Shown here piece by piece: positions 5,428 through 38,459 of a stretch of DNA of 64,000 nucleotides. Both the position numbers and the translations under genes were made by a program. Origin of the DNA: a virus. Under the pieces are notes generated by a model. That model ran no database searches, was not told where the DNA came from, and worked only from the letters and a program-made list of their open reading frames with translations. The stretch is taken from IMG/VR virus record IMGVR_UViG_3300021093_003900, positions 1 through 64,000 of that record, one strand, 5' to 3'. Each line of letters begins with the position of its first letter. Within the stretch, counting starts at the first letter, position 1.

Positions 5428-6369
5428 TCAACTTTCTCCTTCATAATTGACGTTGACATCTTGTTCAATATCAAGAGTATCGTCCTGATCCACATCTAGC
5501 ATAATTTCTTGCTCTCCGATAGCCATAAGATCATCAATCATACTTACCTTTTTCTCGTCAAGGTCGTATTTTGCATTTATTTCTAGAGTTTTTGCATCAC
5601 ATAATGATTTATTTGATGTTTTTGGTAAATTTCTGATGTGTGTCAAAATGTAAGGAGGAAGTTCAGTCATCATTGAATCAATTTGATGATCCAACACATT
5701 CCAAAATGTTGGTGAACTTTCATCATTTACATCCCAAAAAACAGCCACTTTATAACCTGTAATTTTATTAATACAATAAATTAAAATTCCACGAGAATAG
5801 TATCTAAAAAAATGATGCGGATTATTTTTAGATGTGGTACACCATTTTGTTCCAGACCCATAAGATTTCGAGGATTCAAAAGTCAAAGGTCTTATGACAA
5901 GCCATTCTTCGTCATCAATGAGTTTGATTACTTCTTTACTTGAACTTTTTACAATAAATTTTGCGTGTGCTTTATGATAAACTTCTCTCAATTGGTCTAA
6001 ATCAGAAATGGTATTAAGATCTAAATTTTCAACATAATTTTTCTGGTAAAGATCCATAAAATCCAAAATCAGTTCTTTTTCACAATATTCATTTAAGAAA
6101 TTATTAAAATAGTCAACCAAAAAATTAATTTCATTTAAATTAATTTTTGACTCTCCGAATTTATCTGATATTTTATCAATTCGTAAACTACTGTACACGT
6201 TGTTTTCAAAGAGACTAGGTTGAACTCTTTTTTTTAGTTCACTTATAATACATTTAGTCATCAGTGGAACGAATTTATTTGTATCGGAACTATCCAAAAG
6301 TGTTAAATAATCCAAAAAAGAAAAGTTCAATTGAGGATTTCTTTGTTTTATTTCTGATAATTTTGCCAT
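5428..6369 (-). CDS. conserved phage protein (PcfJ-like motif)
   Basis: WLVIRPLTFESSKSYGSGTKWCTT motif; downstream of the thioesterase in the same orientation. Confidence 0.55.
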   Translation of the reverse strand: MAKLSEIKQRNPQLNFSFLDYLTLLDSSDTNKFVPLMTKCIISELKKRVQPSLFENNVYSSLRIDKISDKFGESKINLNEINFLVDYFNNFLNEYCEKELILDFMDLYQKNYVENLDLNTISDLDQLREVYHKAHAKFIVKSSSKEVIKLIDDEEWLVIRPLTFESSKSYGSGTKWCTTSKNNPHHFFRYYSRGILIYCINKITGYKVAVFWDVNDESSPTFWNVLDHQIDSMMTELPPYILTHIRNLPKTSNKSLCDAKTLEINAKYDLDEKKVSMIDDLMAIGEQEIMLDVDQDDTLDIEQDVNVNYEGES

Positions 6370-18888: not shown

Positions 18889-19191
18889 ATGAATGATTTA
18901 AAGAGAATTTTAAGAGAGAATCTTAAGAGACATATAAGAGAGGAATCTGCGAAAAAAAAACCAGAAGTTCATGTCCCTGAAAATTGTTTTGGTGGGCCAA
19001 AGACTTACGCTGGTGGACTTGTAGCTCTTATACAGTTATTAATGAAAGATAATGACAGAGATGCAAAATTAGCTGTTGAAGACTTTAAACAATTCCTGAA
19101 AGGAAGTTCTAAAATTGACGGTAAAGTAGTGGTTCAGATTCTCGAAAAACATGGAAAGAATCAGTACATTTCTTTTGCTGGTTGTTTTTAA
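18889..19191 (+). CDS. hypothetical protein with ILRE-type leader
   Basis: Start MNDLKRILRENLKRHIREE at 18889, 5 nt after TATTTA. Confidence 0.7.
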   Translation: MNDLKRILRENLKRHIREESAKKKPEVHVPENCFGGPKTYAGGLVALIQLLMKDNDRDAKLAVEDFKQFLKGSSKIDGKVVVQILEKHGKNQYISFAGCF

Positions 19192-19213
19192 ACCCATCGA
19201 ATTCGATGGGTTT
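19190..19213. terminator. palindromic bidirectional terminator downstream of tmRNA
   Basis: AAACCCATCGA-AT-TCGATGGGTTT. Confidence 0.75.
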
Positions 19214-19219
19214 GGTTTG

Positions 19220-19620
19220 TGGAGCTAGGTGGATTCGAACCACCGTCCTGTGAATTATTTCACGAGAGGCCTACATGATTATTCGATTATTCATAACCGA
19301 CAAATAGTTGGTTCTCATTTACCATTATTACCAACAACCGTGGGAGTTTCACTTAGATCGGTAGAACCCCTAACTTAACCTCCATTCCTTTTTGGGTAGA
19401 AACCACACCGTAAGGACTTCTGTTGCAAGGTACTTAGTCCGTAACCCCCGGTGATTGTCTCAATTAAGCTACAACCGCGACATCAGACTTCAAGAGTCCG
19501 ATTGTCTCCATACGTGCGAAAACATCGCCATTTGATTGTTTGAACCAGTTTTTACGAGGTTAATTCAGCCCCGTCATGCTCTCTCAGATCCATTGAAACC
19601 AGTCGATTCCTGTTAGCCCC
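19220..19620 (-). ncRNA. ssrA: tmRNA (transfer-messenger RNA)
   Basis: 5' GGGGCTAACAGGAATCGAC; 3' GACGGTGG-TTCGAAT-CCACC-TAGCTCC-A; acceptor stem GGGGCTA/TAGCTCC with the G3.U Ala determinant; helix 2 GAGAGCATG / CATG..CTCTC; internal tag ORF; 401 nt; CCA not fully encoded. Confidence 0.95.
19464..19529 (-). other. tmRNA tag reading frame (A)GDVFARMETIGLLKSDVAVVA*
   Basis: GGC resume codon after A-rich AAACAATCAAAT, open to TAA at 19464; the resume codon is inferred by analogy with Bacteroidota tags. Confidence 0.75.
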
Positions 19621-19646
19621 GAGTGAATATAAATATACTAAAAAAT

Positions 19647-19677
19647 TTTGAAATGTCAAGTTCTTGAACTATATTTG
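19647..19677 (+). promoter_or_regulatory. Bacteroidota-type promoter (TTTG-N19-TATATTTG) for the peptidase, overlapping the divergent tmRNA promoter
   Basis: TTTG 19647-19650, TATATTTG 19670-19677; minus strand has TTG-N19-TATATTTA at 19630-19659. Confidence 0.7.
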
Positions 19678-19684
19678 CTTCATT

Positions 19685-20515
19685 ATGGAATACAGAAATT
19701 ATGACTTGTTGAAAACTATTTTGGCAGTCCCAACTAAAACTTATCAAGAGGACTTGATGATCGAGTTTCTTGACAATTATTTGACTGAACACAATATACC
19801 ACACTACGTGGATGATTATGGGAATGTTTATGCCACCAAAACATCGGAGAGATTTCAAAATCAAGTTTTTCCTTGTGTAATAGCACATACTGATACAGTT
19901 CACAATTTGGTTGATCAAATTATAGTTGAAGAATTTATTGGTAAGGACAGACAACAAAGATCCAAGACTTGTTTAAAAGGTGTAAACTCGAAAGGTAAAC
20001 CAACTGGTATTGGTGGCGACGATAAATGTGGAATTTTTGGAGGACTTACAATATTGATGGATTTACCACATGTAAAGGTGGCATTTTTTGTAAGTGAAGA
20101 AACTGGATGTCACGGTTCAAAAAATAGTGATCCCGAATTTTTCAAGAACGTTGGATATACAATTCAACTTGATGCTCCAGAAAATTATATGATCTCTGAA
20201 GTTTGTAGTGGTGTTCGGTTATTTGATAGAGATTCAGATTTTTTCTTGAAAGTAAATCCGATTATCACCGAAATGATGATTGGCGCTCAGTATATGTACC
20301 ACCCATATACTGACGTTTCTCAAATGGTACTCAAACACGGATTGACCTCAATTAATATTTCTTGTGGTTATTACAATTACCACACCGCAAATGAATACAT
20401 TGTCTTAGATGACCTTTACAATTCAATTGAGGTTGCCAAACGAATGATTGAGTCATTGGGTTATGAAGTTCACCGAATGGAATCAAACAAACGATTACAA
20501 GATTTACGTTGGTGA
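19685..20515 (+). CDS. M28/M42-family zinc peptidase
   Basis: IAHTDTVH, GGDDKCG, SEETGC, QLD and YNYHT..E metal-ligand motifs; start MEYRNY. Confidence 0.85.
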   Translation: MEYRNYDLLKTILAVPTKTYQEDLMIEFLDNYLTEHNIPHYVDDYGNVYATKTSERFQNQVFPCVIAHTDTVHNLVDQIIVEEFIGKDRQQRSKTCLKGVNSKGKPTGIGGDDKCGIFGGLTILMDLPHVKVAFFVSEETGCHGSKNSDPEFFKNVGYTIQLDAPENYMISEVCSGVRLFDRDSDFFLKVNPIITEMMIGAQYMYHPYTDVSQMVLKHGLTSINISCGYYNYHTANEYIVLDDLYNSIEVAKRMIESLGYEVHRMESNKRLQDLRW

Positions 20516-20530
20516 TAATTGATGAAAAAG

Positions 20531-20556
20531 AAAAAGGGGACTTAAGTCCCCTTTTT
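20531..20556. terminator. bidirectional terminator between peptidase and clpC
   Basis: AAAAAGGGGAC-TTAA-GTCCCCTTTTT; the loop contains the clpC stop codon. Confidence 0.85.
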
Positions 20557-22551
20557 TGTTGATATCTTAATCTCTTCATCTTTGTAGGTGAGGTAATAAT
20601 TTTTACCCTCTACAATATCACCCGACAGATATTTTTCGGAGATTACGTCTTCAATTTTTTCTTGAATAGCTCTTTTGATTGGTCGAGCACCATAGGTCTC
20701 ATCAAATCCAACTTCAGCAATATGTTCAACAACTGAATCTTGACAAGTCACATTGATCTTCAATCCTTTGAGACGACTTGTAAGTTTTGCAACTTCAATT
20801 TTAACAATCTCCTTAACCTCTTCTTTTCCGAGGGAATTGAAGACAATAACATCATCAATACGATTGAGAAATTCTGGTTGAAAATATTTTTTCATTTCAG
20901 ATTGAAGGATTGTTTTTTTCTTTTCTTCTTCAGCGTACCTGCTTGTTCTGAAACCGATACCAGTTCCGAAATCTTGAATTTTTTTGATACCAATGTTTGA
21001 TGTCATAATAATCAAACAATTTTTGAAACTAATTTTTCTACCTAGTCCATCCGTGATATGTCCTTCGTCAAGCATTTGAAGAAGTGTATGAAAGATGTCT
21101 TTGTTGGCTTTTTCAATCTCATCGAATAAAACAAGTGAGTATGGTTTAGCTTTTACCTGTTCGGTAAGTTGACCACCCTGATCATAACCAACGTATCCAG
21201 GAGGAGCACCAATCAACCTAGAAACATTATGTTTTTCTTGGTATTCACTCATATCTACACGAATGAGAGCGTCAGGAGATCCAAAAATTTGTTCGGCTAA
21301 TTGTTTTGCCAAATGTGTTTTTCCTGTTCCAGTTCCACCTAAGAAAATGTAACTACCAATCGGTTTATTTGGGTCTTTAAATTTCAAACGGTTTCTACGA
21401 ATTGATTTCGAAATTTTGGTAATCGCTTCGTTTTGTCCAATTACTTTTTTTGACAATTCATTTTCAAGATTGGACAAAGTATTCTTATCATCCAAAGTCA
21501 AACGGTTCAAAGGTATTTTAGTCATATTGGACACAACATCCAAAACCACATCCACATCAATTGGACGTTTGTTCATCAAGAGTTCTTCTTCAAATTTTTT
21601 CTTTTCGATTTCTAGTTTATCCAGAATTTTCTTTTCAGCATCTCTTAAGTCGGCAGCTTTTTCATAGTCTTGTTTTTTGACCACATCCATTTTTTGTTTT
21701 TTAATTTCAGAAGCTTTTGTTTTAAGATTTTCAATAATTGGTGGCGCTTTGATATCAATTTGTGATTTGGAACCAACCTCATCCAGAATATCAAAAGCTT
21801 TGTCTGGGAACTCTCTATCCGTAATATACCTATCTGCCAAGTTCACACAGAGTTCTAATACTTCATCTGAATACGTGACTTTATGAAAATCCTCGTATCT
21901 TGATTTGGATTGCTTGATGATTTGGAGTGTTTCCGTTTTTGATGGTGGATCTACAACAACTTTTTGAAATCTTCTTTCAAGGGCACCATCTTTTTCAATA
22001 TGTTGTCTATATTCATCAAAAGTTGTCGCACCAATACAATGAATTTCACCACGAGATAATGCTGGTTTGAAAATATTTGAAGCATCCATAGCTCCCGACG
22101 AATTCCCAGCACCAACCATAGTGTGGATTTCGTCAATGAAAATAATAACATCAGGATTTTCAACAATCTCTTCAATAATAGCTTTCATTCGTTCCTCAAA
22201 TTGTCCACGATATTTTGTACCAGCAACAATTGAAGTAAGATCTAAATTTACAATTCGTTTATCCCTTAGATTTCTCGGACATTTACCTTCGTGAATTTGA
22301 ATTGCTAACCCTTCCACAATTGAGGTTTTACCAGCACCGGGTTCACCAATGATAATTGCGTTATTTTTTTTTCTACGAGATAAAATTTGAGCAATTCGAG
22401 TAATTTCTACTTCACGACCAACAACTGGATCCAATTTACCTTCAGCGGCTAATTTATTTAAATCCCGACTGAAATTATCCAATACAGGTGTTCCACCACT
22501 TTTTTTACGAACATCTTGTTCTTTTTCGTTCTCATCCATTGATTCTATCAT
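20542..22551 (-). CDS. clpC: ClpC-type AAA+ unfoldase lacking the N-terminal Clp-repeat domain
   Basis: Two AAA modules (GEPGAGKT/IFIDEIH; GGTGTGKT/LFDEIEK), UVR-type middle domain (QDYEKAADLRD), GYVG pore loop, IGF ClpP-docking loop; starts ~20 aa before TPVLDNFSRDL. Confidence 0.92.
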   Translation of the reverse strand: MIESMDENEKEQDVRKKSGGTPVLDNFSRDLNKLAAEGKLDPVVGREVEITRIAQILSRRKKNNAIIIGEPGAGKTSIVEGLAIQIHEGKCPRNLRDKRIVNLDLTSIVAGTKYRGQFEERMKAIIEEIVENPDVIIFIDEIHTMVGAGNSSGAMDASNIFKPALSRGEIHCIGATTFDEYRQHIEKDGALERRFQKVVVDPPSKTETLQIIKQSKSRYEDFHKVTYSDEVLELCVNLADRYITDREFPDKAFDILDEVGSKSQIDIKAPPIIENLKTKASEIKKQKMDVVKKQDYEKAADLRDAEKKILDKLEIEKKKFEEELLMNKRPIDVDVVLDVVSNMTKIPLNRLTLDDKNTLSNLENELSKKVIGQNEAITKISKSIRRNRLKFKDPNKPIGSYIFLGGTGTGKTHLAKQLAEQIFGSPDALIRVDMSEYQEKHNVSRLIGAPPGYVGYDQGGQLTEQVKAKPYSLVLFDEIEKANKDIFHTLLQMLDEGHITDGLGRKISFKNCLIIMTSNIGIKKIQDFGTGIGFRTSRYAEEEKKKTILQSEMKKYFQPEFLNRIDDVIVFNSLGKEEVKEIVKIEVAKLTSRLKGLKINVTCQDSVVEHIAEVGFDETYGARPIKRAIQEKIEDVISEKYLSGDIVEGKNYYLTYKDEEIKISTKKGT

Positions 22552-22567
22552 TTTCTTTATTTTTTTA

Positions 22568-22599
22568 CAAATATAGTGAACTATTGATTAAAAAACAAT
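22568..22599 (-). promoter_or_regulatory. Bacteroidota-type promoter for clpC (TTG-N20-TATATTTG)
   Basis: TATATTTG on the minus strand at 22568-22575. Confidence 0.6.
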
Positions 22600-22602
22600 C
22601 TT

Positions 22603-22673
22603 TGTCATATTGTCAGAAAAAATAAATTTTTTATGTCATATTGACTTATTTTTCTGATTGGTATATTGTTTGT
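22603..22673 (+). promoter_or_regulatory. repeated TGTCATATTG boxes plus sigma54-like element upstream of dnaK
   Basis: TGTCATATTG at 22603 and 22634 (31 nt apart); TGG-N10-GT at 22659-22673. Confidence 0.45.
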
Positions 22674-22710
22674 ATATTTTAGGATAAAATAAAACTAAAA
22701 AAACAAAGTT

Positions 22711-24582
22711 ATGAATAAAAATGTGATTATCGGTATCGACTTAGGTACCACAAACTCGGCGGTAGCAATTATTGAAGGTGGTCAACCTATCGTGGTTGCT
22801 AATTCAGAAGGTAAGAGAACTACACCATCGATTGTTGCTTTTACTGATAAAGATCGAAAGGTTGGTGATCCTGCAAAAAGACAGGCGGTAACCAATCCAG
22901 AAAAGACAGTCTTTTCAATAAAAAGATTTATTGGTAAAGATTTTGATAAATGTAAAGCAGAGTCAAAAAAAGTTCCTTACAAAACAACCAAAACATCAAC
23001 TGGTCTAGTTGGTGTAAAAATTGATGATAAGACATATACACCACAAGAAATTTCAGCAACTATTCTACAGAAAATGAAAAAAACAGCTGAAGATTATTTG
23101 GGTTATGAAGTAACTAGAGCGGTTATTACGGTACCTGCTTATTTCGGTGACCAAGAAAGGAGTGCTACTATTGAGGCTGGTGAAATTGCTGGATTGAAAG
23201 TTGAAAGGATTATTAATGAACCGACAGCTGCAGCATTGGCTTATGGTTTAGATAAAAAATCAAAAGATTCTAAAATATTGGTATTTGACTGTGGTGGTGG
23301 AACTCATGACGTATCGGTACTTGAAATTGGTGATGGGATTTTTGAAGTAAAATCCACTGATGGTGACACACATTTGGGTGGCGACGATTTTGACAACGCA
23401 ATTATCAATTGGATGACATCTGAGTTTCAAAATGAATATGGTATTGATCTTACAAAAGATCCAATGGCCCTCCAAAGAGTTAGAGAAGCCGCTGAAAAAG
23501 CAAAAATTGAATTGTCGTCATCTTCAAACAGTGAAATTAATTTACCTTACATTACTGCTCGTGAAGGTGTTCCTGTTCACTTTGTTAAATCATTACCAAG
23601 AAGTAAATTTGAACAACTGACAAAAGATTTGGTTGACAGAACAATTGCTTGTGCGAAAAAAGCTCTTAAAAACGCTAAATTAAAACCATCCGAAATTGAT
23701 GAGGTTGTTTTAGTTGGTGGATCTACTCGTATTCCAGCAATCCAAGAAGCGGTTGAGAACTTCATTGGTAAAAAAGCAAATAAATCAGTTAATCCTGATG
23801 AAGTTGTGGCTTTGGGAGCTGCTATACAAGGTGCGGTTCTTACTGGTGATGTAGATGATGTACTACTTTTAGATGTTATTCCATTGTCATTCGGTATCGA
23901 AACTATGGGTGGTGTGATGACAAAAATTATTGAAGCTAATACAACCATTCCAATCAAAAAACAACAAACATTCTCAACCGCTGTTGATAATCAACCAACT
24001 GTGGATATTAATGTACTACAAGGTGAAAGACCAATGGCAAATGATAACAGATCTTTGGGTAGATTTTTCTTGGAAGGTATTACACCAGCACCACGAGGTG
24101 TACCACAAATTGAAGTTACAATTGATATCGATGCAAATGGAATTCTTCATGTCACCGCAAAAGACCAAGCGTCTGGTAAGGAAAATAAAATCAGAATTGA
24201 AGGTGGTTCTTCACTAAAACCAGAAGAAATCGAAAGAATGAAACGTGAAGCTCAAGAAAATTTGGAACAAGATAAATTGGCACAACAAAGAGTTGAATTG
24301 TTCAATCAATGTGATAATCAAATTTTCAACACGAAAAAAAATATGGAAGAGTGGAAAGATAAGTTTACTGAAGAACAATCTACGAAGTTAAATGAATGTT
24401 TGGAAAATTTAGAGAAAGCTTATTCTGAACGAAATGAAGAAAATTGTAAAGAACATTCGGAAAAACTTAATAAAGTCTTTATTGAAGTTTCGAACGAAAT
24501 ATACTCAACAATGAAACCAGAAGACGACATGAATACTACAAATGATATTCAAGACGTTGAATTCACAGAAGTAGAAAAGTAA
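22711..24582 (+). CDS. dnaK: molecular chaperone DnaK (Hsp70)
   Basis: [54 protein letters not shown] linker, C-terminal DVEFTEV. Confidence 0.98.
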
Positions 24583-24599
24583 TTTTCGTATATTTATGG

Positions 24600-24631
24600 A
24601 AAGACCGACCCCTAAAAAAAGTCGGTCTTTT
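24600..24631 (+). terminator. stem-loop after dnaK (terminator or leader hairpin)
   Basis: AAAGACCGAC-N11-GTCGGTCTTT. Confidence 0.65.
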
Positions 24632-24643
24632 AATTTAAAAACT

Positions 24644-24889
24644 ATGGCAATATCAAAACAAACAATCGAGGGTACTAAAATAATAAATGAAGTACAATCA
24701 AGTAATTTAGTCAGGACTGAATATGATACTAGTGATAGTAGTTTGGTTGTAGAATTTAAAAATGGAACCAAATACTCCTATGAAAATGTTCCCCATAAAA
24801 TATATGCACAATTTAGATTAGCGGAGTCACAAGGAAATTTTTTCAATATTAACATCGCAAAAGTATTCAAATACAAAAAACTGACTTGA
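24644..24889 (+). CDS. KTSC domain protein
   Basis: VQSSNL...YD....LVVEFKNGTKYSYENVP......AESQGNFFN. Confidence 0.88.
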   Translation: MAISKQTIEGTKIINEVQSSNLVRTEYDTSDSSLVVEFKNGTKYSYENVPHKIYAQFRLAESQGNFFNINIAKVFKYKKLT

Positions 24890-24906
24890 TAATATATTTA
24901 TTATGA

Positions 24907-25641
24907 ATGGAAGGTTATCAAGAAATACTCAAATCATTTGAAACTAGAGATATTCTCAATGGTGAGATATGGAATGATGTTTTTACGGACAATCCAAGAC
25001 TTAAACCTCAGATCAGAAAAATTTTATTGAAAATTGCTTCTGAGTTTCAAGGATACTTAGGTGATGATATTTTTTTATCGGATGTAAGATTCACCGGGTC
25101 TTTAGCCAATTATAATTGGTCGAAGTTTTCGGATATTGATTTACATTGTATCATAGATTTTGAACAATTCGATCCATCAGAAAGAGAATTGTATAAAGAA
25201 CTCTTCAAACTGAAAAAAACACTTTTTAATGAAAACCATAACATCAGAGTAAAGGGTTATGAAGTTGAATTATATGCAGAGGATATTTCAGAAAAACATG
25301 TATCATCTGGTGTTTATTCAGTTCTATTTAACGATTGGATCAACCAACCGATTAAGAAAAAAGTAAATATAGATAAGAAATTTTTCTTACAGAAAGCGGA
25401 TACAATGATGGATAGAATTGATAATTTGATGATTGATGTTAAAGATCTAGATATTGATACCGCATTGAAAAAAATAAAAGATTTTAATGACAAACTTAAA
25501 AAATATAGAAAATCTGGGTTAGATAAGGGTGGTGAACTTTCATATGAAAATATGATATTCAAATTTTTACGAAGGAATGGGTATCTAGAAAAACTTCAAA
25601 CATTTAAAAATGAGTTAATGGATAGGAAACTTTCGCTTTAA
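24907..25641 (+). CDS. nucleotidyltransferase (Pol-beta superfamily)
   Basis: TGSLANYNWSKFSDIDLH (GS...DxD) and VELY motifs. Confidence 0.8.
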   Translation: MEGYQEILKSFETRDILNGEIWNDVFTDNPRLKPQIRKILLKIASEFQGYLGDDIFLSDVRFTGSLANYNWSKFSDIDLHCIIDFEQFDPSERELYKELFKLKKTLFNENHNIRVKGYEVELYAEDISEKHVSSGVYSVLFNDWINQPIKKKVNIDKKFFLQKADTMMDRIDNLMIDVKDLDIDTALKKIKDFNDKLKKYRKSGLDKGGELSYENMIFKFLRRNGYLEKLQTFKNELMDRKLSL

Positions 25642-31427: not shown

Positions 31428-34229
31428 ATGGAAGATAAAAATTTAACAATATGGCAAAGACTTTCCCAAAGTTTTGGGCCTAACTCACTTCTAGGTCAGG
31501 ATTTACCTACATATAAATTTGATAAGAAAGAATTACTCAGAACGCAAAGTAAGGATGAATATGAAAAACAAAAACTTCAAGCACAACAAACTTACTATCT
31601 TGTAAGTCAATGGGCTAAAGTTGAAAACAATTTATACAACCAAGCGGTATACTATGAACCAACAAGATTGGCATCATACTATGATTTCGAAAGTATGGAA
31701 TATTCGTTAAGTTCTGAAACACTCATAGCAACACCTGATGGTTTTATAACAATAAAAGACCTTGCAGATAAAGGTCGAGATTACGAATTTATTGTATATG
31801 CTTACGATCATAACACCGAAAAAGTTGTACCCGCATTAGCAAGGAACGCTCATTACACACGTGATGAAATGACGTATAAAATTACATTTGATGATGGGTC
31901 ACACATAATTGCAACATATGGTCACAGATTTTTAAAACGTGATGGCGTTTTCGAGGTTGTTGAAAACTTAAAACCCGGTGATTCTATGATGCCATTTTAT
32001 CGTAAATCATTTTTTGATAATCAAAATTATAATTGGGTATATGTGTGTAATTCTAATGAAGGACATCACGGATGGGTTTCTGAACACAAATTAATTGCTG
32101 AATGGTATTACGACAAAAAAGTTAGTGTTGACGAAGAAATTCATCACAAAGATTTTAATGGTAAAAATAATAACCCTGAAAATTTGCAAATTATGAATAT
32201 TTCAGAGCACAGGGCTTATCACAGAAAATTGAATAATGAAAAACTTTGGGCTAATCCAGAATTCAGAGAAAAAATGTCAATTGTTGCTAAAAAAAAGGGA
32301 AAACTAAGTTGGAATGGGAGGAGAGTGGGTGTCAAGAACCCGTCTTATTTTCACATACCCTACGATTTAATAGTTCAAAAAGCTACTGAGCATAAAACTT
32401 TAATGGGTACAGCTTCGGCACTTAATATTTCATACAAAAAATTACAAAGAGAAATAACATATGCTGGGTATAAAGATTGGAGTACTTTTTGTTTTGCTTA
32501 TGGTATTGGAAAATCGAAATATTCAATCGCTAAGGTTAAAGGTGATAGTTATGTTTTTAACCATAAAATTGTAAGTATTGAACCGCACGGAGTTGTGCCA
32601 GTGTATGACTTGAGTGTACCTGGATATAAAAACTTTGCAACTGACACCATATTTTCCCATAACACACCAGAAATCGCGTCAGCATTGGATACATATGCTG
32701 AAGAATCAACCACCGTTGATGAAAATGGTTTTATGTTACAGATTTATTCTGATTCGCCCAGAATAAAATCTATTCTAGCGGATTTATTTAATAACGCTCT
32801 TGACATCAACACAAACTTACCGATGTGGACACGTAATACCGCCAAATATGGTGATAATTTTGTGTTTCTGAAATTAGACCCTGAAAAAGGTGTTGTGGGT
32901 TGTTTACAACTACCTAACATTGAAATAGAAAGAATTGAGGTAGGAATGAAAGGGAGAGCAACCTCAGGATTTGGAGCTGCACAAGCATCCAACGCCGATA
33001 CAAAAAGTTTAACATTTACTTGGAAAAACAAACAACTGGATTTTAATAGTTGGGAAATTGCCCACTTCCGATTGTTAGGTGATGATCGTAAATTACCTTA
33101 CGGAACAGCGATGACCGAAAAAGCAAGAAGGATTTGGAAACAATTGGTATTAGCTGAGGATGCAATGCTTGTTTATCGAACATCTAGAGCCCCTGAAAGA
33201 AGGGTATTTAAAGTTTATGTTGGTAATATGGACGACGCGGATGTTTATCCATATGTCCAAAGATTTGCACAACAATTTAAAAAAGATCAGATTGCAGACC
33301 CAAAAACAGGTAATGTTGACATGAGATTCAATCAGATGGCGGTAGACCAAGACTTTTTTATCCCTGTTAGAGATCCTGCAGCACCTACACCAATTGACAC
33401 TTTAGCTGGTGCTCAAAATCTGTCAGAGATTGCAGATATCGAGTACATTCAGAAAAAACTCTTGACGGCACTTAGAATTCCGAAAGCATTTTTAGGATTT
33501 GAGGAACCTGTTGGTGATGGTAAAAATTTATCACTACAAGACATTCGTTTTGCAAGAACAATTAATAGAATTCAAAAGTGTATGATTTCGGAGTTAAATA
33601 AAATTGCTATTATACACTTGTTTTTACTTGGTTTTGAAGATGAACTTGGTTCATTTCAATTATCACTGACTAATCCATCTAAACAAGCCGATTTACTCGC
33701 AGTAGAAGTTTGGAAAGAAAAAATGTTATTGTATAGAGATTGTGTCACTAAAATTGAAGGTATTGCACCAGTATCTCAGGCTTGGGCCAAAAAACACGTT
33801 CTTGGATTTTCAGATGATGAAATCAAACTTGATTTACAACAACAAAGAATGGAAATGGCGGTAGCGACAGAACTCACAAATACGCCTAATGTTATTAACA
33901 GAACAGGTATATTTGACAGTATCGATAAGTTGTACGGAAAACAAGTTATGAGTGGAGAATCATCAACCACAGGTACACTACCTATGGGTGGTGTAGAACC
34001 ATTACCTCCTAGTGGTGGTGGATTTGGTGGAGATATAGGTGTGGGTGGAACACCACCACCACCTCTAGGGGTACCCACATTAGCACCAGAAAGTAGGAAA
34101 AAAACACCAAACATAATCTTAGAAAGGATGGAAATAGAAAATAGAGAAGAAATAGATTTTGACAAAGGTGAAAAAATATTATCATCAATTCAAAATGAGT
34201 TGGACAAATTATCAGATGAAACTATTTAA
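31428..34229 (+). CDS. portal protein (T4 gp20-like) containing an intein
   Basis: ESMEY|TPEIASALD, KYGDNF, HFRL, EDAMLVYRTSRAPERRVF, ALRIPKAFL, DIRFARTINRIQ. Confidence 0.93.
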   Translation: MEDKNLTIWQRLSQSFGPNSLLGQDLPTYKFDKKELLRTQSKDEYEKQKLQAQQTYYLVSQWAKVENNLYNQAVYYEPTRLASYYDFESMEYSLSSETLIATPDGFITIKDLADKGRDYEFIVYAYDHNTEKVVPALARNAHYTRDEMTYKITFDDGSHIIATYGHRFLKRDGVFEVVENLKPGDSMMPFYRKSFFDNQNYNWVYVCNSNEGHHGWVSEHKLIAEWYYDKKVSVDEEIHHKDFNGKNNNPENLQIMNISEHRAYHRKLNNEKLWANPEFREKMSIVAKKKGKLSWNGRRVGVKNPSYFHIPYDLIVQKATEHKTLMGTASALNISYKKLQREITYAGYKDWSTFCFAYGIGKSKYSIAKVKGDSYVFNHKIVSIEPHGVVPVYDLSVPGYKNFATDTIFSHNTPEIASALDTYAEESTTVDENGFMLQIYSDSPRIKSILADLFNNALDINTNLPMWTRNTAKYGDNFVFLKLDPEKGVVGCLQLPNIEIERIEVGMKGRATSGFGAAQASNADTKSLTFTWKNKQLDFNSWEIAHFRLLGDDRKLPYGTAMTEKARRIWKQLVLAEDAMLVYRTSRAPERRVFKVYVGNMDDADVYPYVQRFAQQFKKDQIADPKTGNVDMRFNQMAVDQDFFIPVRDPAAPTPIDTLAGAQNLSEIADIEYIQKKLLTALRIPKAFLGFEEPVGDGKNLSLQDIRFARTINRIQKCMISELNKIAIIHLFLLGFEDELGSFQLSLTNPSKQADLLAVEVWKEKMLLYRDCVTKIEGIAPVSQAWAKKHVLGFSDDEIKLDLQQQRMEMAVATELTNTPNVINRTGIFDSIDKLYGKQVMSGESSTTGTLPMGGVEPLPPSGGGFGGDIGVGGTPPPPLGVPTLAPESRKKTPNIILERMEIENREEIDFDKGEKILSSIQNELDKLSDETI
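31704..32663 (+). mobile_element. intein (320 aa) with HNH homing endonuclease in the portal gene
   Basis: Block A SLSSETLIATPDG, block B ATYGHRF, HNH EIHHKDFNGKNNNPENL, block F VYDLSVPGYKNF, block G FSHN followed by Thr+1. Confidence 0.92.
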
Positions 34230-34946: not shown

Positions 34947-35138
34947 TCAGTTCTCCGCGTCACGTTTTCTTTGAATGAATTGAGCCTTCAAAACTTCTTT
35001 TCTTCTTTTTTGAGCCTTACTCTCAAAAGAAAGTCTTGACAATAATCCTTCATTTTGTTTTGTTTTGATAATTTTTCCTTTTAATAATTTCAAGGATTTA
35101 TCAAGACTAGATGTTCCGTTTACTTTAATTTTAATCAT
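34947..35138 (-). CDS. rpsU: ribosomal protein bS21 (divergent, Bacteroidota-like)
   Basis: 63 aa, basic; IKV...SLDKSLK.LK.K..KT.....L..R..F.....KRR....KAQFIQ pattern; position between portal and prohead protease as in described bS21 phages. Confidence 0.85.
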   Translation of the reverse strand: MIKIKVNGTSSLDKSLKLLKGKIIKTKQNEGLLSRLSFESKAQKRRKEVLKAQFIQRKRDAEN

Positions 35139-36686: not shown

Positions 36687-36770
36687 GAAAATTTTTTTTA
36701 CAACAAAAATTCTAAAAATTAATATTTTTTACGTTATGGGTATATTTATATGGAAAAATTTAATATTTCT

Positions 36771-38459
36771 ATGGCAGACAAAAAGTCATTAGTAGAGGAA
36801 GCACTTCTTCAGATGAAAAATCTTGAAGATGTTGTTACTGAAAACGCAAAAGGAATACTTGCTTCAACTATGAAGGAAGAAATCTCTGAGTTGGTAAAAG
36901 AGTCTTTGAAAAACAAGGCTAAAAATAAATTGAAAGAACAAGACGAACCAGATACTGATCCTGATGATGTGGATATGGATCCTGATGACATGGATATGGA
37001 TTCTGATGATGAAATGGATATGGATCCTGATGATGACATGGATATGGATCCTGATGATGACATGGATATGGATCCTGATGATGACATGGATATGGATCCT
37101 GATGATGAAATGGATATGGAACCTGAGGTTAATATTGACATTGAAGACGATGTGGTGGAAATCCCAGACGACGCTTCAATGGAAGACGTTCTTAGTGTAT
37201 TCAAAAAAATGGGGCCGTCAGATAGAATAATCGTTAAAAAAGAAGGTGATAAAATTCACCTTGACGACGAAGATGAAGATGTTGAATATATCATCTCAAC
37301 TAACGAATCGATTTCAGAAAAAGAACGGATGTCAGATAGGGATTTAGATCGAATTATGAATGATATCTTCGAAGATGAAGATGTAGTCGATGATTTTGAC
37401 GAAGATGACTTGGATGATACTCTTGGTGAAGATATGGATTCTGATATAGATGTGGAAACAGACGAAGTTGTATATGAAATTTCAATGGACGAAGAAATGG
37501 ACGAAGAAATGGACGAGGAAATGTATGAGGGAATGGACGAGGAAATGTATGAGGGAATGGACGAGGAAATGTATGAGGGAATGGATGAGGAAATGTATGA
37601 GGGAATGGATGAAGAAGTAGAGGAAACTATGTATGAGTCCAAGTTTGGTATGAAACCTATTATGTTTTCTAATTGGAAATCAGGAAAAAAATTGGGTTCT
37701 AAAACTGAAACTAAAGAATCTACTACAACAAAACCCAAAGAAAAAGAAAAGGTTGAAACTGGTAAGGAAAAATCAAAAAGTCCTTTCCATAGACCAGGTG
37801 AAAAAACAGCGCCTAAAGCTAAAAAAACCGAAACTAAAGAAGGTATGGGTAAATTCAAACCAAAGGGTACTGGAATGAATCTTTCTCCGAAAAAATTTGA
37901 ATACAAAGAAGGAAAGAAACATGACATATCAGCGGTTGAAAAAAGAATTGCTGGAGCATTCTCCAAAGGTGAAACTAAAGAGGCGGCTAGAACTCTAGGT
38001 AATGGAACAAGAAACTTTGCTCCAAGAAAAGGTCTACCAAAAATGAAAGTGATTCCCAATTCTGCAATTAGAGAAGAAGTTGAATCTTTGAGACAAAAAA
38101 ATGTTGAGTATCAAAAAGCATTGAATGTTTTCAGAGAAAAACTTAACGAAGTTGCTGTCTTCAATTCAAATTTGGCTTACGCTACAAGGTTATTCACAGA
38201 ACATCCTACGTCCAAACAAGAAAAGATTAACATCTTAAGAAGATTTGATGAAGTTGAGACAATTAAAGAATCTAAAAATTTGTACAACGCAGTCAAAAAT
38301 GAATTAACAAATTCAAATAAAAATGTGGTTACTGAATCAATAGAAAAAATCGAAAAAACACATTCTTCAGGATCATCACAAAATTTAATTGAATCAAAAA
38401 CTTATGAAAATCCTCAGTTCATGCGAATGAAGGATATCATGCAAAAAATAAATAAATAA
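36771..38459 (+). CDS. prohead core/scaffolding protein
   Basis: Acidic low-complexity centre with coiled-coil termini, located between protease and MCP; start MADKK. Confidence 0.75.
   Translation: MADKKSLVEEALLQMKNLEDVVTENAKGILASTMKEEISELVKESLKNKAKNKLKEQDEPDTDPDDVDMDPDDMDMDSDDEMDMDPDDDMDMDPDDDMDMDPDDDMDMDPDDEMDMEPEVNIDIEDDVVEIPDDASMEDVLSVFKKMGPSDRIIVKKEGDKIHLDDEDEDVEYIISTNESISEKERMSDRDLDRIMNDIFEDEDVVDDFDEDDLDDTLGEDMDSDIDVETDEVVYEISMDEEMDEEMDEEMYEGMDEEMYEGMDEEMYEGMDEEMYEGMDEEVEETMYESKFGMKPIMFSNWKSGKKLGSKTETKESTTTKPKEKEKVETGKEKSKSPFHRPGEKTAPKAKKTETKEGMGKFKPKGTGMNLSPKKFEYKEGKKHDISAVEKRIAGAFSKGETKEAARTLGNGTRNFAPRKGLPKMKVIPNSAIREEVESLRQKNVEYQKALNVFREKLNEVAVFNSNLAYATRLFTEHPTSKQEKINILRRFDEVETIKESKNLYNAVKNELTNSNKNVVTESIEKIEKTHSSGSSQNLIESKTYENPQFMRMKDIMQKINK
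36957..37118 (+). repeat. 21/24-nt coding tandem repeat (DPDDDMDM)
   Basis: GATCCTGATGATGACATGGATATG units. Confidence 0.9.
37485..37616 (+). repeat. 12/24-nt coding tandem repeat (MDEEMYEG)
   Basis: ATGGAYGAGGAAATGTATGAGGGA units. Confidence 0.9.

Follow-up and report, generated by a model that had tools for sequence, protein, structure and literature searches.

The DNA considered here, 64,000 nt in all (hereafter the window), corresponds to the opening 64 kb of the 115-kb IMG/VR virus record IMGVR_UViG_3300021093_003900, the rest of which was also searched. It carries a run of four adjacent genes: for a transfer-messenger RNA (tmRNA, the product of ssrA), a zinc exopeptidase, a ClpC-type unfoldase without the usual N-terminal domain (N-domain), and the chaperone DnaK. 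A preliminary description made from the sequence had read these as a phage module leading from ribosome rescue to proteolysis. All four genes proved genuine, at the positions originally given, and the layout is as described, with a divergent tmRNA-peptidase pair, a convergent peptidase-clpC pair, and a divergent clpC-dnaK pair. The phage origin is likewise borne out, both by the source of the sequence in a virus record and by genes for a large terminase, a portal protein, and a major head protein within the window. The G+C content of the window is ~31%, and the record has an estimated completeness of 38% (CheckV), implying a genome near 300 kb. The source is a phage of the roughly 300-kb, bS21-type Bacteroidota family from lakes.

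The tmRNA gene (positions 19217–19620, reverse strand) is of the one-piece type. Its 404-nt product is matched over its full length by the Rfam model RF00023 (model positions 1–374 complete; it scores 85.5 bits where the gathering score is 47, with E 1e-33), which confirms the original call; it is the sole RNA that Rfam detects in the window. The acceptor stem (5′ GGGGCUA with UAGCUCC) includes a G3:U70 wobble, the alanine identity pair, and the T-arm is canonical (GGUGGUUCGAAUCCACC). The encoded 3′ end is ACAA, so that CCA must be added post-transcriptionally. ARAGORN at default settings does not detect this tmRNA in the window or in the whole record, and a call obtained at a relaxed threshold is spurious; for the clade as a whole its defaults recover 29 of 131 phage tmRNA copies, often with the wrong tag. 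A blastn search of the tmRNA against 50,697 GenBank phage records gave no match.

The 64-bp spacer between the tmRNA and peptidase genes (19621–19684) had been proposed as a divergent promoter region, and promoter-like sites are present on both of its strands, as consensus matches only. On the reverse strand, TTGACA-16-TATATT (19659–19632) ends 12 nt before the 5′ end of the tmRNA; on the forward strand, a Bacteroidota-type TTTG-N19-TAnnTTTG (19647–19677) lies immediately 5′ of the peptidase ATG. On the 3′ side of the tmRNA is a terminator-like hairpin (19190–19213, reverse strand; 10-bp stem, −14.8 kcal/mol, z −6.0). The phage-encoded tmRNA thus has promoter-like and hairpin signals of its own, from which it is predicted to be transcribed. 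The further suggestion that the four genes are bounded by terminators holds on this side only: there is no terminator 3′ of dnaK, where the start of the next gene is just 14 nt downstream, so the right boundary of the block is not a terminator.

Relatives of the locus were collected by IMG/VR searches with the peptidase and ClpC sequences, which returned 160 loci with identities of 41–98% for the peptidase and 56–99% for ClpC. The tag reading frame of the window tmRNA (19464–19529, reverse strand; GGC...GCU, then UAA) consists of 21 codons, translated as GDVFARMETIGLLKSDVAVVA, and a stop. The frame is kept in 106 related tmRNAs at a length of 21–22 residues, with the consensus G-N-V-L-x-K-M-x-x-L-G-L-I-R-x-x-E-V-x-V-A. 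Residues G1, G11, L12, and A21 are invariant; the third positions of their codons vary, and L12 also has synonymous changes at the first. Over the 106 relatives, diversity at codon positions 1, 2, and 3 is 0.37, 0.27, and 0.53, and in a control region, the 63 nt upstream of the frame, codon periodicity is absent. From the third-position diversity and the lack of periodicity upstream, the tag appears to be selected as a peptide; the codon pattern is the signature expected of a translated product under selection.

The earlier observation that the tag is altered also stands: host-type tags in five Bacteroidota genomes are of the forms GENNYALAA, DNTSYALAA, and GEENSYAMAA, about half the length of this peptide-level-selected one. 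It ends in small, hydrophobic residues (V/T-V-A or V-A-A), the last of them always alanine, as in known ssrA degrons. The hosts predicted for the phage family span several Bacteroidota classes (PMC9723584), and conservation of the tag interior across phages of these predicted host classes argues for a conserved reader. Such conservation fits a reader that is phage-encoded or universally conserved; among the co-inherited proteins, ClpC is one of several candidates.

The clpC gene (20542–22551, reverse strand) encodes a 669-aa ClpC-type double-ring AAA+ unfoldase (Pfam AAA, AAA_lid_9, AAA_2, and ClpB_D2-small). Alignment with the PDB entries for ClpC of Staphylococcus aureus (6em8) and Bacillus subtilis (3j3s) is strong (E 1e-212) and begins only at residue 154 of ClpC, which leaves the phage protein with no N-domain; Pfam finds no Clp_N match in it. 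ClpC proteins of Bacteroidota (838–849 aa as open reading frames (ORFs), 840–857 aa as open frames) are 55–58% identical to it; they are longer by ~160 residues at the N-terminus and share the DFGxGVGF loop. The N-domain is absent from the ClpC of every clade member. What remains is highly conserved: among 132 distinct clade sequences, FGxG(V/I)GF, which contains the ClpP-docking loop (GIGF at 531–534 here), is invariant, and the Walker A/B pairs and pore loops of both rings are invariant or nearly so. A UVR-type middle motif is also kept, with QDYEKAADLRD aligning to QEFENAANLRD of S. aureus ClpC and its Q, E, AA, R, and D invariant in the same 132 sequences. The initial reading of this protein, as an N-domain-less ClpC with a ClpP loop, thus gains a conserved middle motif and loop. 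By sequence, phage ClpC is an active-looking unfoldase apparently built to dock on ClpP, and derives from Bacteroidota ClpC through loss of the N-domain.

Between the divergent tmRNA and the convergent clpC, the peptidase gene (19685–20515, forward strand) encodes 276 aa. ATG 19685 is the likely start; an alternative TTG at 19664 falls within the promoter region. Pfam scores are at the cut-off (M20, 24.8 against 24.6; M42, 23.0 against 23.2), and the protein is assigned to phrog_4191 (“peptidase”). The AlphaFold2 model (predicted local distance difference test score, pLDDT, 93.9) has a clan-MH catalytic-domain fold, and Foldseek matches it to PepT and TET (E 5e-13 to 1e-10, probability 1.00, query TM-score 0.6–0.75). 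Residues H68, D70, D112, E138, E139, D163, and H233 show no variation among 51 sequences, and the motifs GGDDKCG, SEETG, and NYHT align with those of PepT that supply the two-zinc ligands and catalytic glutamate. Fold and ligands together confirm the proposed zinc peptidase and refine it to a two-zinc exopeptidase of clan MH (PepT/M20, TET/M42-like) that is made up of a catalytic domain alone, with no lid or dimerization domain. A two-way hairpin (20531–20556; 11-bp stem, T runs on both sides) separates it from the convergent clpC.

The preliminary description had suggested that synteny be looked for in related phages. Loci extending at least 3 kb beyond the peptidase gene were taken as informative for tmRNA (n = 129), and in all 129 the order tmRNA-peptidase-clpC is kept; without exception the tmRNA shares the strand of clpC and lies on the far side of the peptidase, 55–5435 bp from it. 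The peptidase gene is inverted in 27 loci and displaced in none. Linkage therefore holds for these three genes and fails for DnaK, which is present in just 13 of 150 related loci. In L021:7794–9950 (forward strand) and 114 other related loci, a gene of ~378 aa (up to 718) lies between tmRNA and peptidase; it is missing there in the window lineage, whose only counterpart is a weak paralogue at 5428–6369 (reverse strand).

To the right of the four genes, conservation continues. A KTSC-domain protein (24596–24889, forward strand; PF13619, E 3e-16) is present in 140 of 141 relatives, and so, in 139 of 140, is its downstream neighbor, a 244-aa protein, here d244 (24907–25641, forward strand), with a minimal nucleotidyltransferase (NTase) fold and a helical bundle. 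In d244 the residues G64, S65, D76, and D78 (GS...DxD) are invariant; its model is confident (pLDDT 91.8), and its Foldseek matches are weak, all to the NTase superfamily. A wider fold search returned only minimal NTases for the N-terminal half (2rff and 1ylq, Z ~7); its matches to the C-terminal half were mostly helical bundles of a generic kind. These two genes (24596–25641) are as tightly co-inherited with clpC as is the tmRNA. From clpC rightwards, through KTSC, d244, and two ORFs to the terminase gene, the order is collinear in nearly all relatives, and the genes to the left of tmRNA are variable; the trio of tmRNA, peptidase, and clpC thus forms the left end of a conserved core block of the clade, which continues into the head genes.

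The DnaK gene (22711–24582, forward strand; HSP70, 820.8 bits, profile positions 1–598 of 599) occupies a variable slot between clpC and the KTSC gene. Its nearest cellular relatives are in the Bacteroidota (61–69% identity), and a quick tree is compatible with one or two acquisitions by phages. Elsewhere in the clade the slot holds a double-UVR protein (67 loci) or Hsp20 (25 loci, e.g., L132:9328–9729, reverse strand), with DnaK in 11–13; since Hsp20 and DnaK share it, the slot seems to collect chaperone genes. DnaK is accordingly a lineage-specific, optional occupant, and the idea that it is a conserved member of the module has to be given up. Searches of the 115-kb record, which covers ~38% of the genome, found neither DnaJ nor GrpE; host co-chaperones could serve. 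The double-UVR protein (e.g., L073:4847–5347, reverse strand), of ~127–166 aa, has two C-terminal UVR motifs resembling that of the ClpC middle domain and is a possible partner of ClpC; the window’s own record lacks it.

What these genes do together can be proposed in outline. The most likely account, favored with modest confidence, is that the phage runs them as a supplement to ribosome rescue and proteolysis. Host alanyl-tRNA synthetase would charge the phage tmRNA during infection, and SmpB, from the host here and phage-encoded in some relatives, would deliver it; the tmRNA would then free stalled ribosomes and add the phage tag to the unfinished chains. The N-domain-less ClpC would dock on ClpP, again the host’s here and supplied by the phage itself in about half of the near-complete relatives, and would unfold substrates outside the N-domain-based control of the host. 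Peptides released could be trimmed into amino acids by the exopeptidase, with DnaK as optional chaperone cargo. Conservation of the tag interior supports rescue and proteolysis in this general form. Candidate readers of the tag are phage ClpC, host ClpXP, and some other phage protein. That phage ClpC is the reader, whether directly or via an adaptor, is rather doubtful. A fully private tag-and-destroy system, in which the internal motif is read by the N-domain-less ClpC or by a phage adaptor (the double-UVR protein, for example) and chains pass to ClpP and, via the peptidase, to amino acids without host ClpX or adaptors, is a shade more doubtful still.

Partners for such a pathway are encoded by some of the larger relatives: SmpB in 3 of 18, ClpP in 8 of 18, and both in one genome of 309 kb. 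In relative G014, the SmpB gene (L094:15348–15764, reverse strand) is 0.5 kb from the tmRNA gene and convergent with it.

A number of results weigh against a phage-run supplement. Neither SmpB nor ClpP was found in the 115-kb record, with ~38% of the genome covered, or in five close relatives; the preliminary description had reported both missing from the window, and this now extends to the whole record. Linkage alone is no proof of a shared pathway, and its use as evidence specific to this one is undercut by the genes from clpC to terminase, which are equally collinear. DnaK, as noted, is rare. Outside the clade the module was sought and its components were found unlinked: in phages LR745206 and LR756502 (634/642 kb), which encode an N-domain-less ClpC (a 701-aa ORF in LR745206), tmRNA is lacking throughout the genome and clpC has no peptidase within 15 kb, and Cellulophaga phages have the peptidase family, with ClpC and tmRNA absent within 6 kb of it. 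The “matched oddities” on which novelty had been thought to turn are thus separable, an N-domain-less ClpC occurring without tmRNA and the peptidase with neither partner within that distance. Tags ending in -VA, such as that of GFP-LVA, are still degraded by Escherichia coli ClpXP, which means that the phage tag could be read by host proteases. Finally, the proposed check for co-variation of tag and ClpC gave no sign of a private pairing: tag divergence correlates with that of ClpC (r 0.59) no more strongly than with that of d244 (0.61), and similarly with that of the peptidase (0.56), and ClpC-specific covariation with the tag is absent in Mantel and partial Mantel tests.

A rival explanation is that these are independent auxiliary genes, adjacent only by descent. 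The tmRNA would then simply add rescue capacity, with host ClpXP or Lon handling the tag; ClpC would act on other substrates (host proteins or assembly factors), and the peptidase would contribute to general amino-acid supply. Besides the collinearity as far as terminase, the lack of ClpC-specific covariation, and the separate occurrence of the components in other phages, this explanation has in its favor that published phage tmRNAs have no adjacent Clp ATPase (PMC4131195, PMC9004378). It is a credible alternative, if one with rather less than an even chance of being right, and some features fit it poorly. G11, L12, and the hydrophobic pattern of the tag are conserved across phages of diverse hosts, far beyond what a C-terminal degron would need; the gene order is unbroken despite variable inserts between the components and 27 inversions of the peptidase; and the cargo next to clpC consists consistently of proteostasis genes.

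The tag itself invites another reading, in which its long form is mainly non-degradative, an amphipathic peptide that would send chains to sequestration, to a chaperone, or to a phage protein such as the KTSC or NTase-like neighbor. Its 21–22 residues, invariant internal G-L, and helical hydrophobic spacing are what such a peptide might look like, and KTSC and d244 are co-inherited as tightly as ClpC; the ssrA-degron-like C-terminus with its invariant alanine and the ClpP-docking unfoldase adjoining the tmRNA module nevertheless make this improbable. Temperate elements often carry ssrA fragments, and the copy in mycobacteriophage DS6A is a tRNA-like domain only (PMC4131195), which raises the question of whether the tmRNA is a relic of integration into a host ssrA, or else a decoy that titrates SmpB. 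The RNA here, at 404 nt, aligns to the model from end to end, comes with a promoter-like site and a hairpin of its own, and has a tag frame under apparent peptide-level selection in more than 100 relatives; the same site is occupied by tmRNA in related lytic-type jumbo phages, near-complete genomes included. An attP remnant or decoy was rejected on these grounds, full length, selected tag, and constant location, and can have only the slightest chance of being correct.

Comparison with known systems shows where this one departs from them. Like bacterial trans-translation and its Clp proteases (tmRNA-SmpB; ClpXP/ClpAP and SspB in E. coli), it has a one-piece tmRNA, the alanine identity pair, a tag whose end is small and hydrophobic with alanine last, and a ClpP-docking unfoldase, here encoded nearby. 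Bacterial tags are of 9–10 aa, however, and the phage tag is of 21–22 with a conserved internal motif; and where ClpX or ClpA is the bacterial unfoldase, an N-domain-less ClpC type stands beside the phage tmRNA, its link to the tag hypothetical, in a record in which no SmpB or ClpP was found. Known ClpC proteins acting with ClpP in Firmicutes, Actinobacteria, and Bacteroidota (6em8, 3j3s) have the same two AAA+ rings, UVR-type middle domain, and ClpP loop, but also the N-domain, the site of control by MecA, phospho-arginine, and ClpS-type factors, that the phage clade has lost. The PepT (M20B) and TET (M42) aminopeptidases share the catalytic fold and the H/D/EE/D/H ligands of the phage protein, which at 276 aa has no lid or dimerization domain.

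Among phages, complete ssrA genes have been published for other lytic types: the mycobacteriophage Bxz1 group, Bacillus phage G, the OM43 phage Melnitz (a two-piece ssrA), and huge phages (PMC4131195, PMC9004378, PMC7162821). The idea that phages tag proteins for amino-acid recycling has also been voiced (PMC9004378). In contrast to the published cases, the tmRNA described here is of the Bacteroidota one-piece type, with an extended tag throughout the clade and a fixed order with the peptidase and N-domain-less ClpC; the published surveys used ARAGORN, which misses most tmRNAs of the present clade. The bS21 freshwater Bacteroidetes phages (Chen et al., 2022, PMC9723584) are of the same size class and host phylum and have a like head module with a reverse-strand bS21-like gene; their reported gene content includes chaperones, ClpC, and ClpP, and in the text and supplement of that study tmRNA (0 occurrences), the tag, and a fixed tmRNA-peptidase-clpC order go unmentioned. 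Phage tmRNAs and phage Clp genes are therefore already in the literature; new are the clade-wide extended tag, its fixed association with the N-domain-less ClpC and peptidase, and the gap in ARAGORN detection.

If the tag and the N-domain-less ClpC were a matched pair, they would constitute a natural orthogonal degron-unfoldase system in a virus, and could provide a compact tag/protease pair for Bacteroidota genetics. These phages would also be seen to reprogram, beyond translation initiation (bS21), how ribosomes are rescued and what becomes of incomplete proteins. Regardless of any coupling, the tmRNA of this very large, abundant lake-phage family is mostly missed by ARAGORN, so phage tmRNA surveys undercount.

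Some further features of these genomes were noted. In LR745206 and LR756502, a tRNA-flanked GOLLD RNA (RF02032, 275–287 bits) lies 2–6 kb upstream of the N-domain-less ClpC gene (L001:12535–12940 and L002:9007–9413). In the window, a 63-aa basic ORF on the reverse strand (34947–35138), between the portal and prohead-protease genes, is placed where phage bS21 has been described (PMC9723584); a Pfam S21 search of the whole record and of this ORF gave no match even at E values up to 1, so it is called bS21-like from context only. The portal ORF itself (31428–34229, forward strand; 933 aa) has HNH-endonuclease matches at residues ~120–280, ahead of the portal domain at 412–813, a pattern suggestive of the insertion of an intein or homing element. 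A 569-aa protein (36750–38459, forward strand), encoded between the prohead-protease and major-head-protein genes, has no PHROG match; it contains long acidic repeats rich in D, M, and E (DPDDMDMD, MDEEMYEG), and may be a scaffolding protein.

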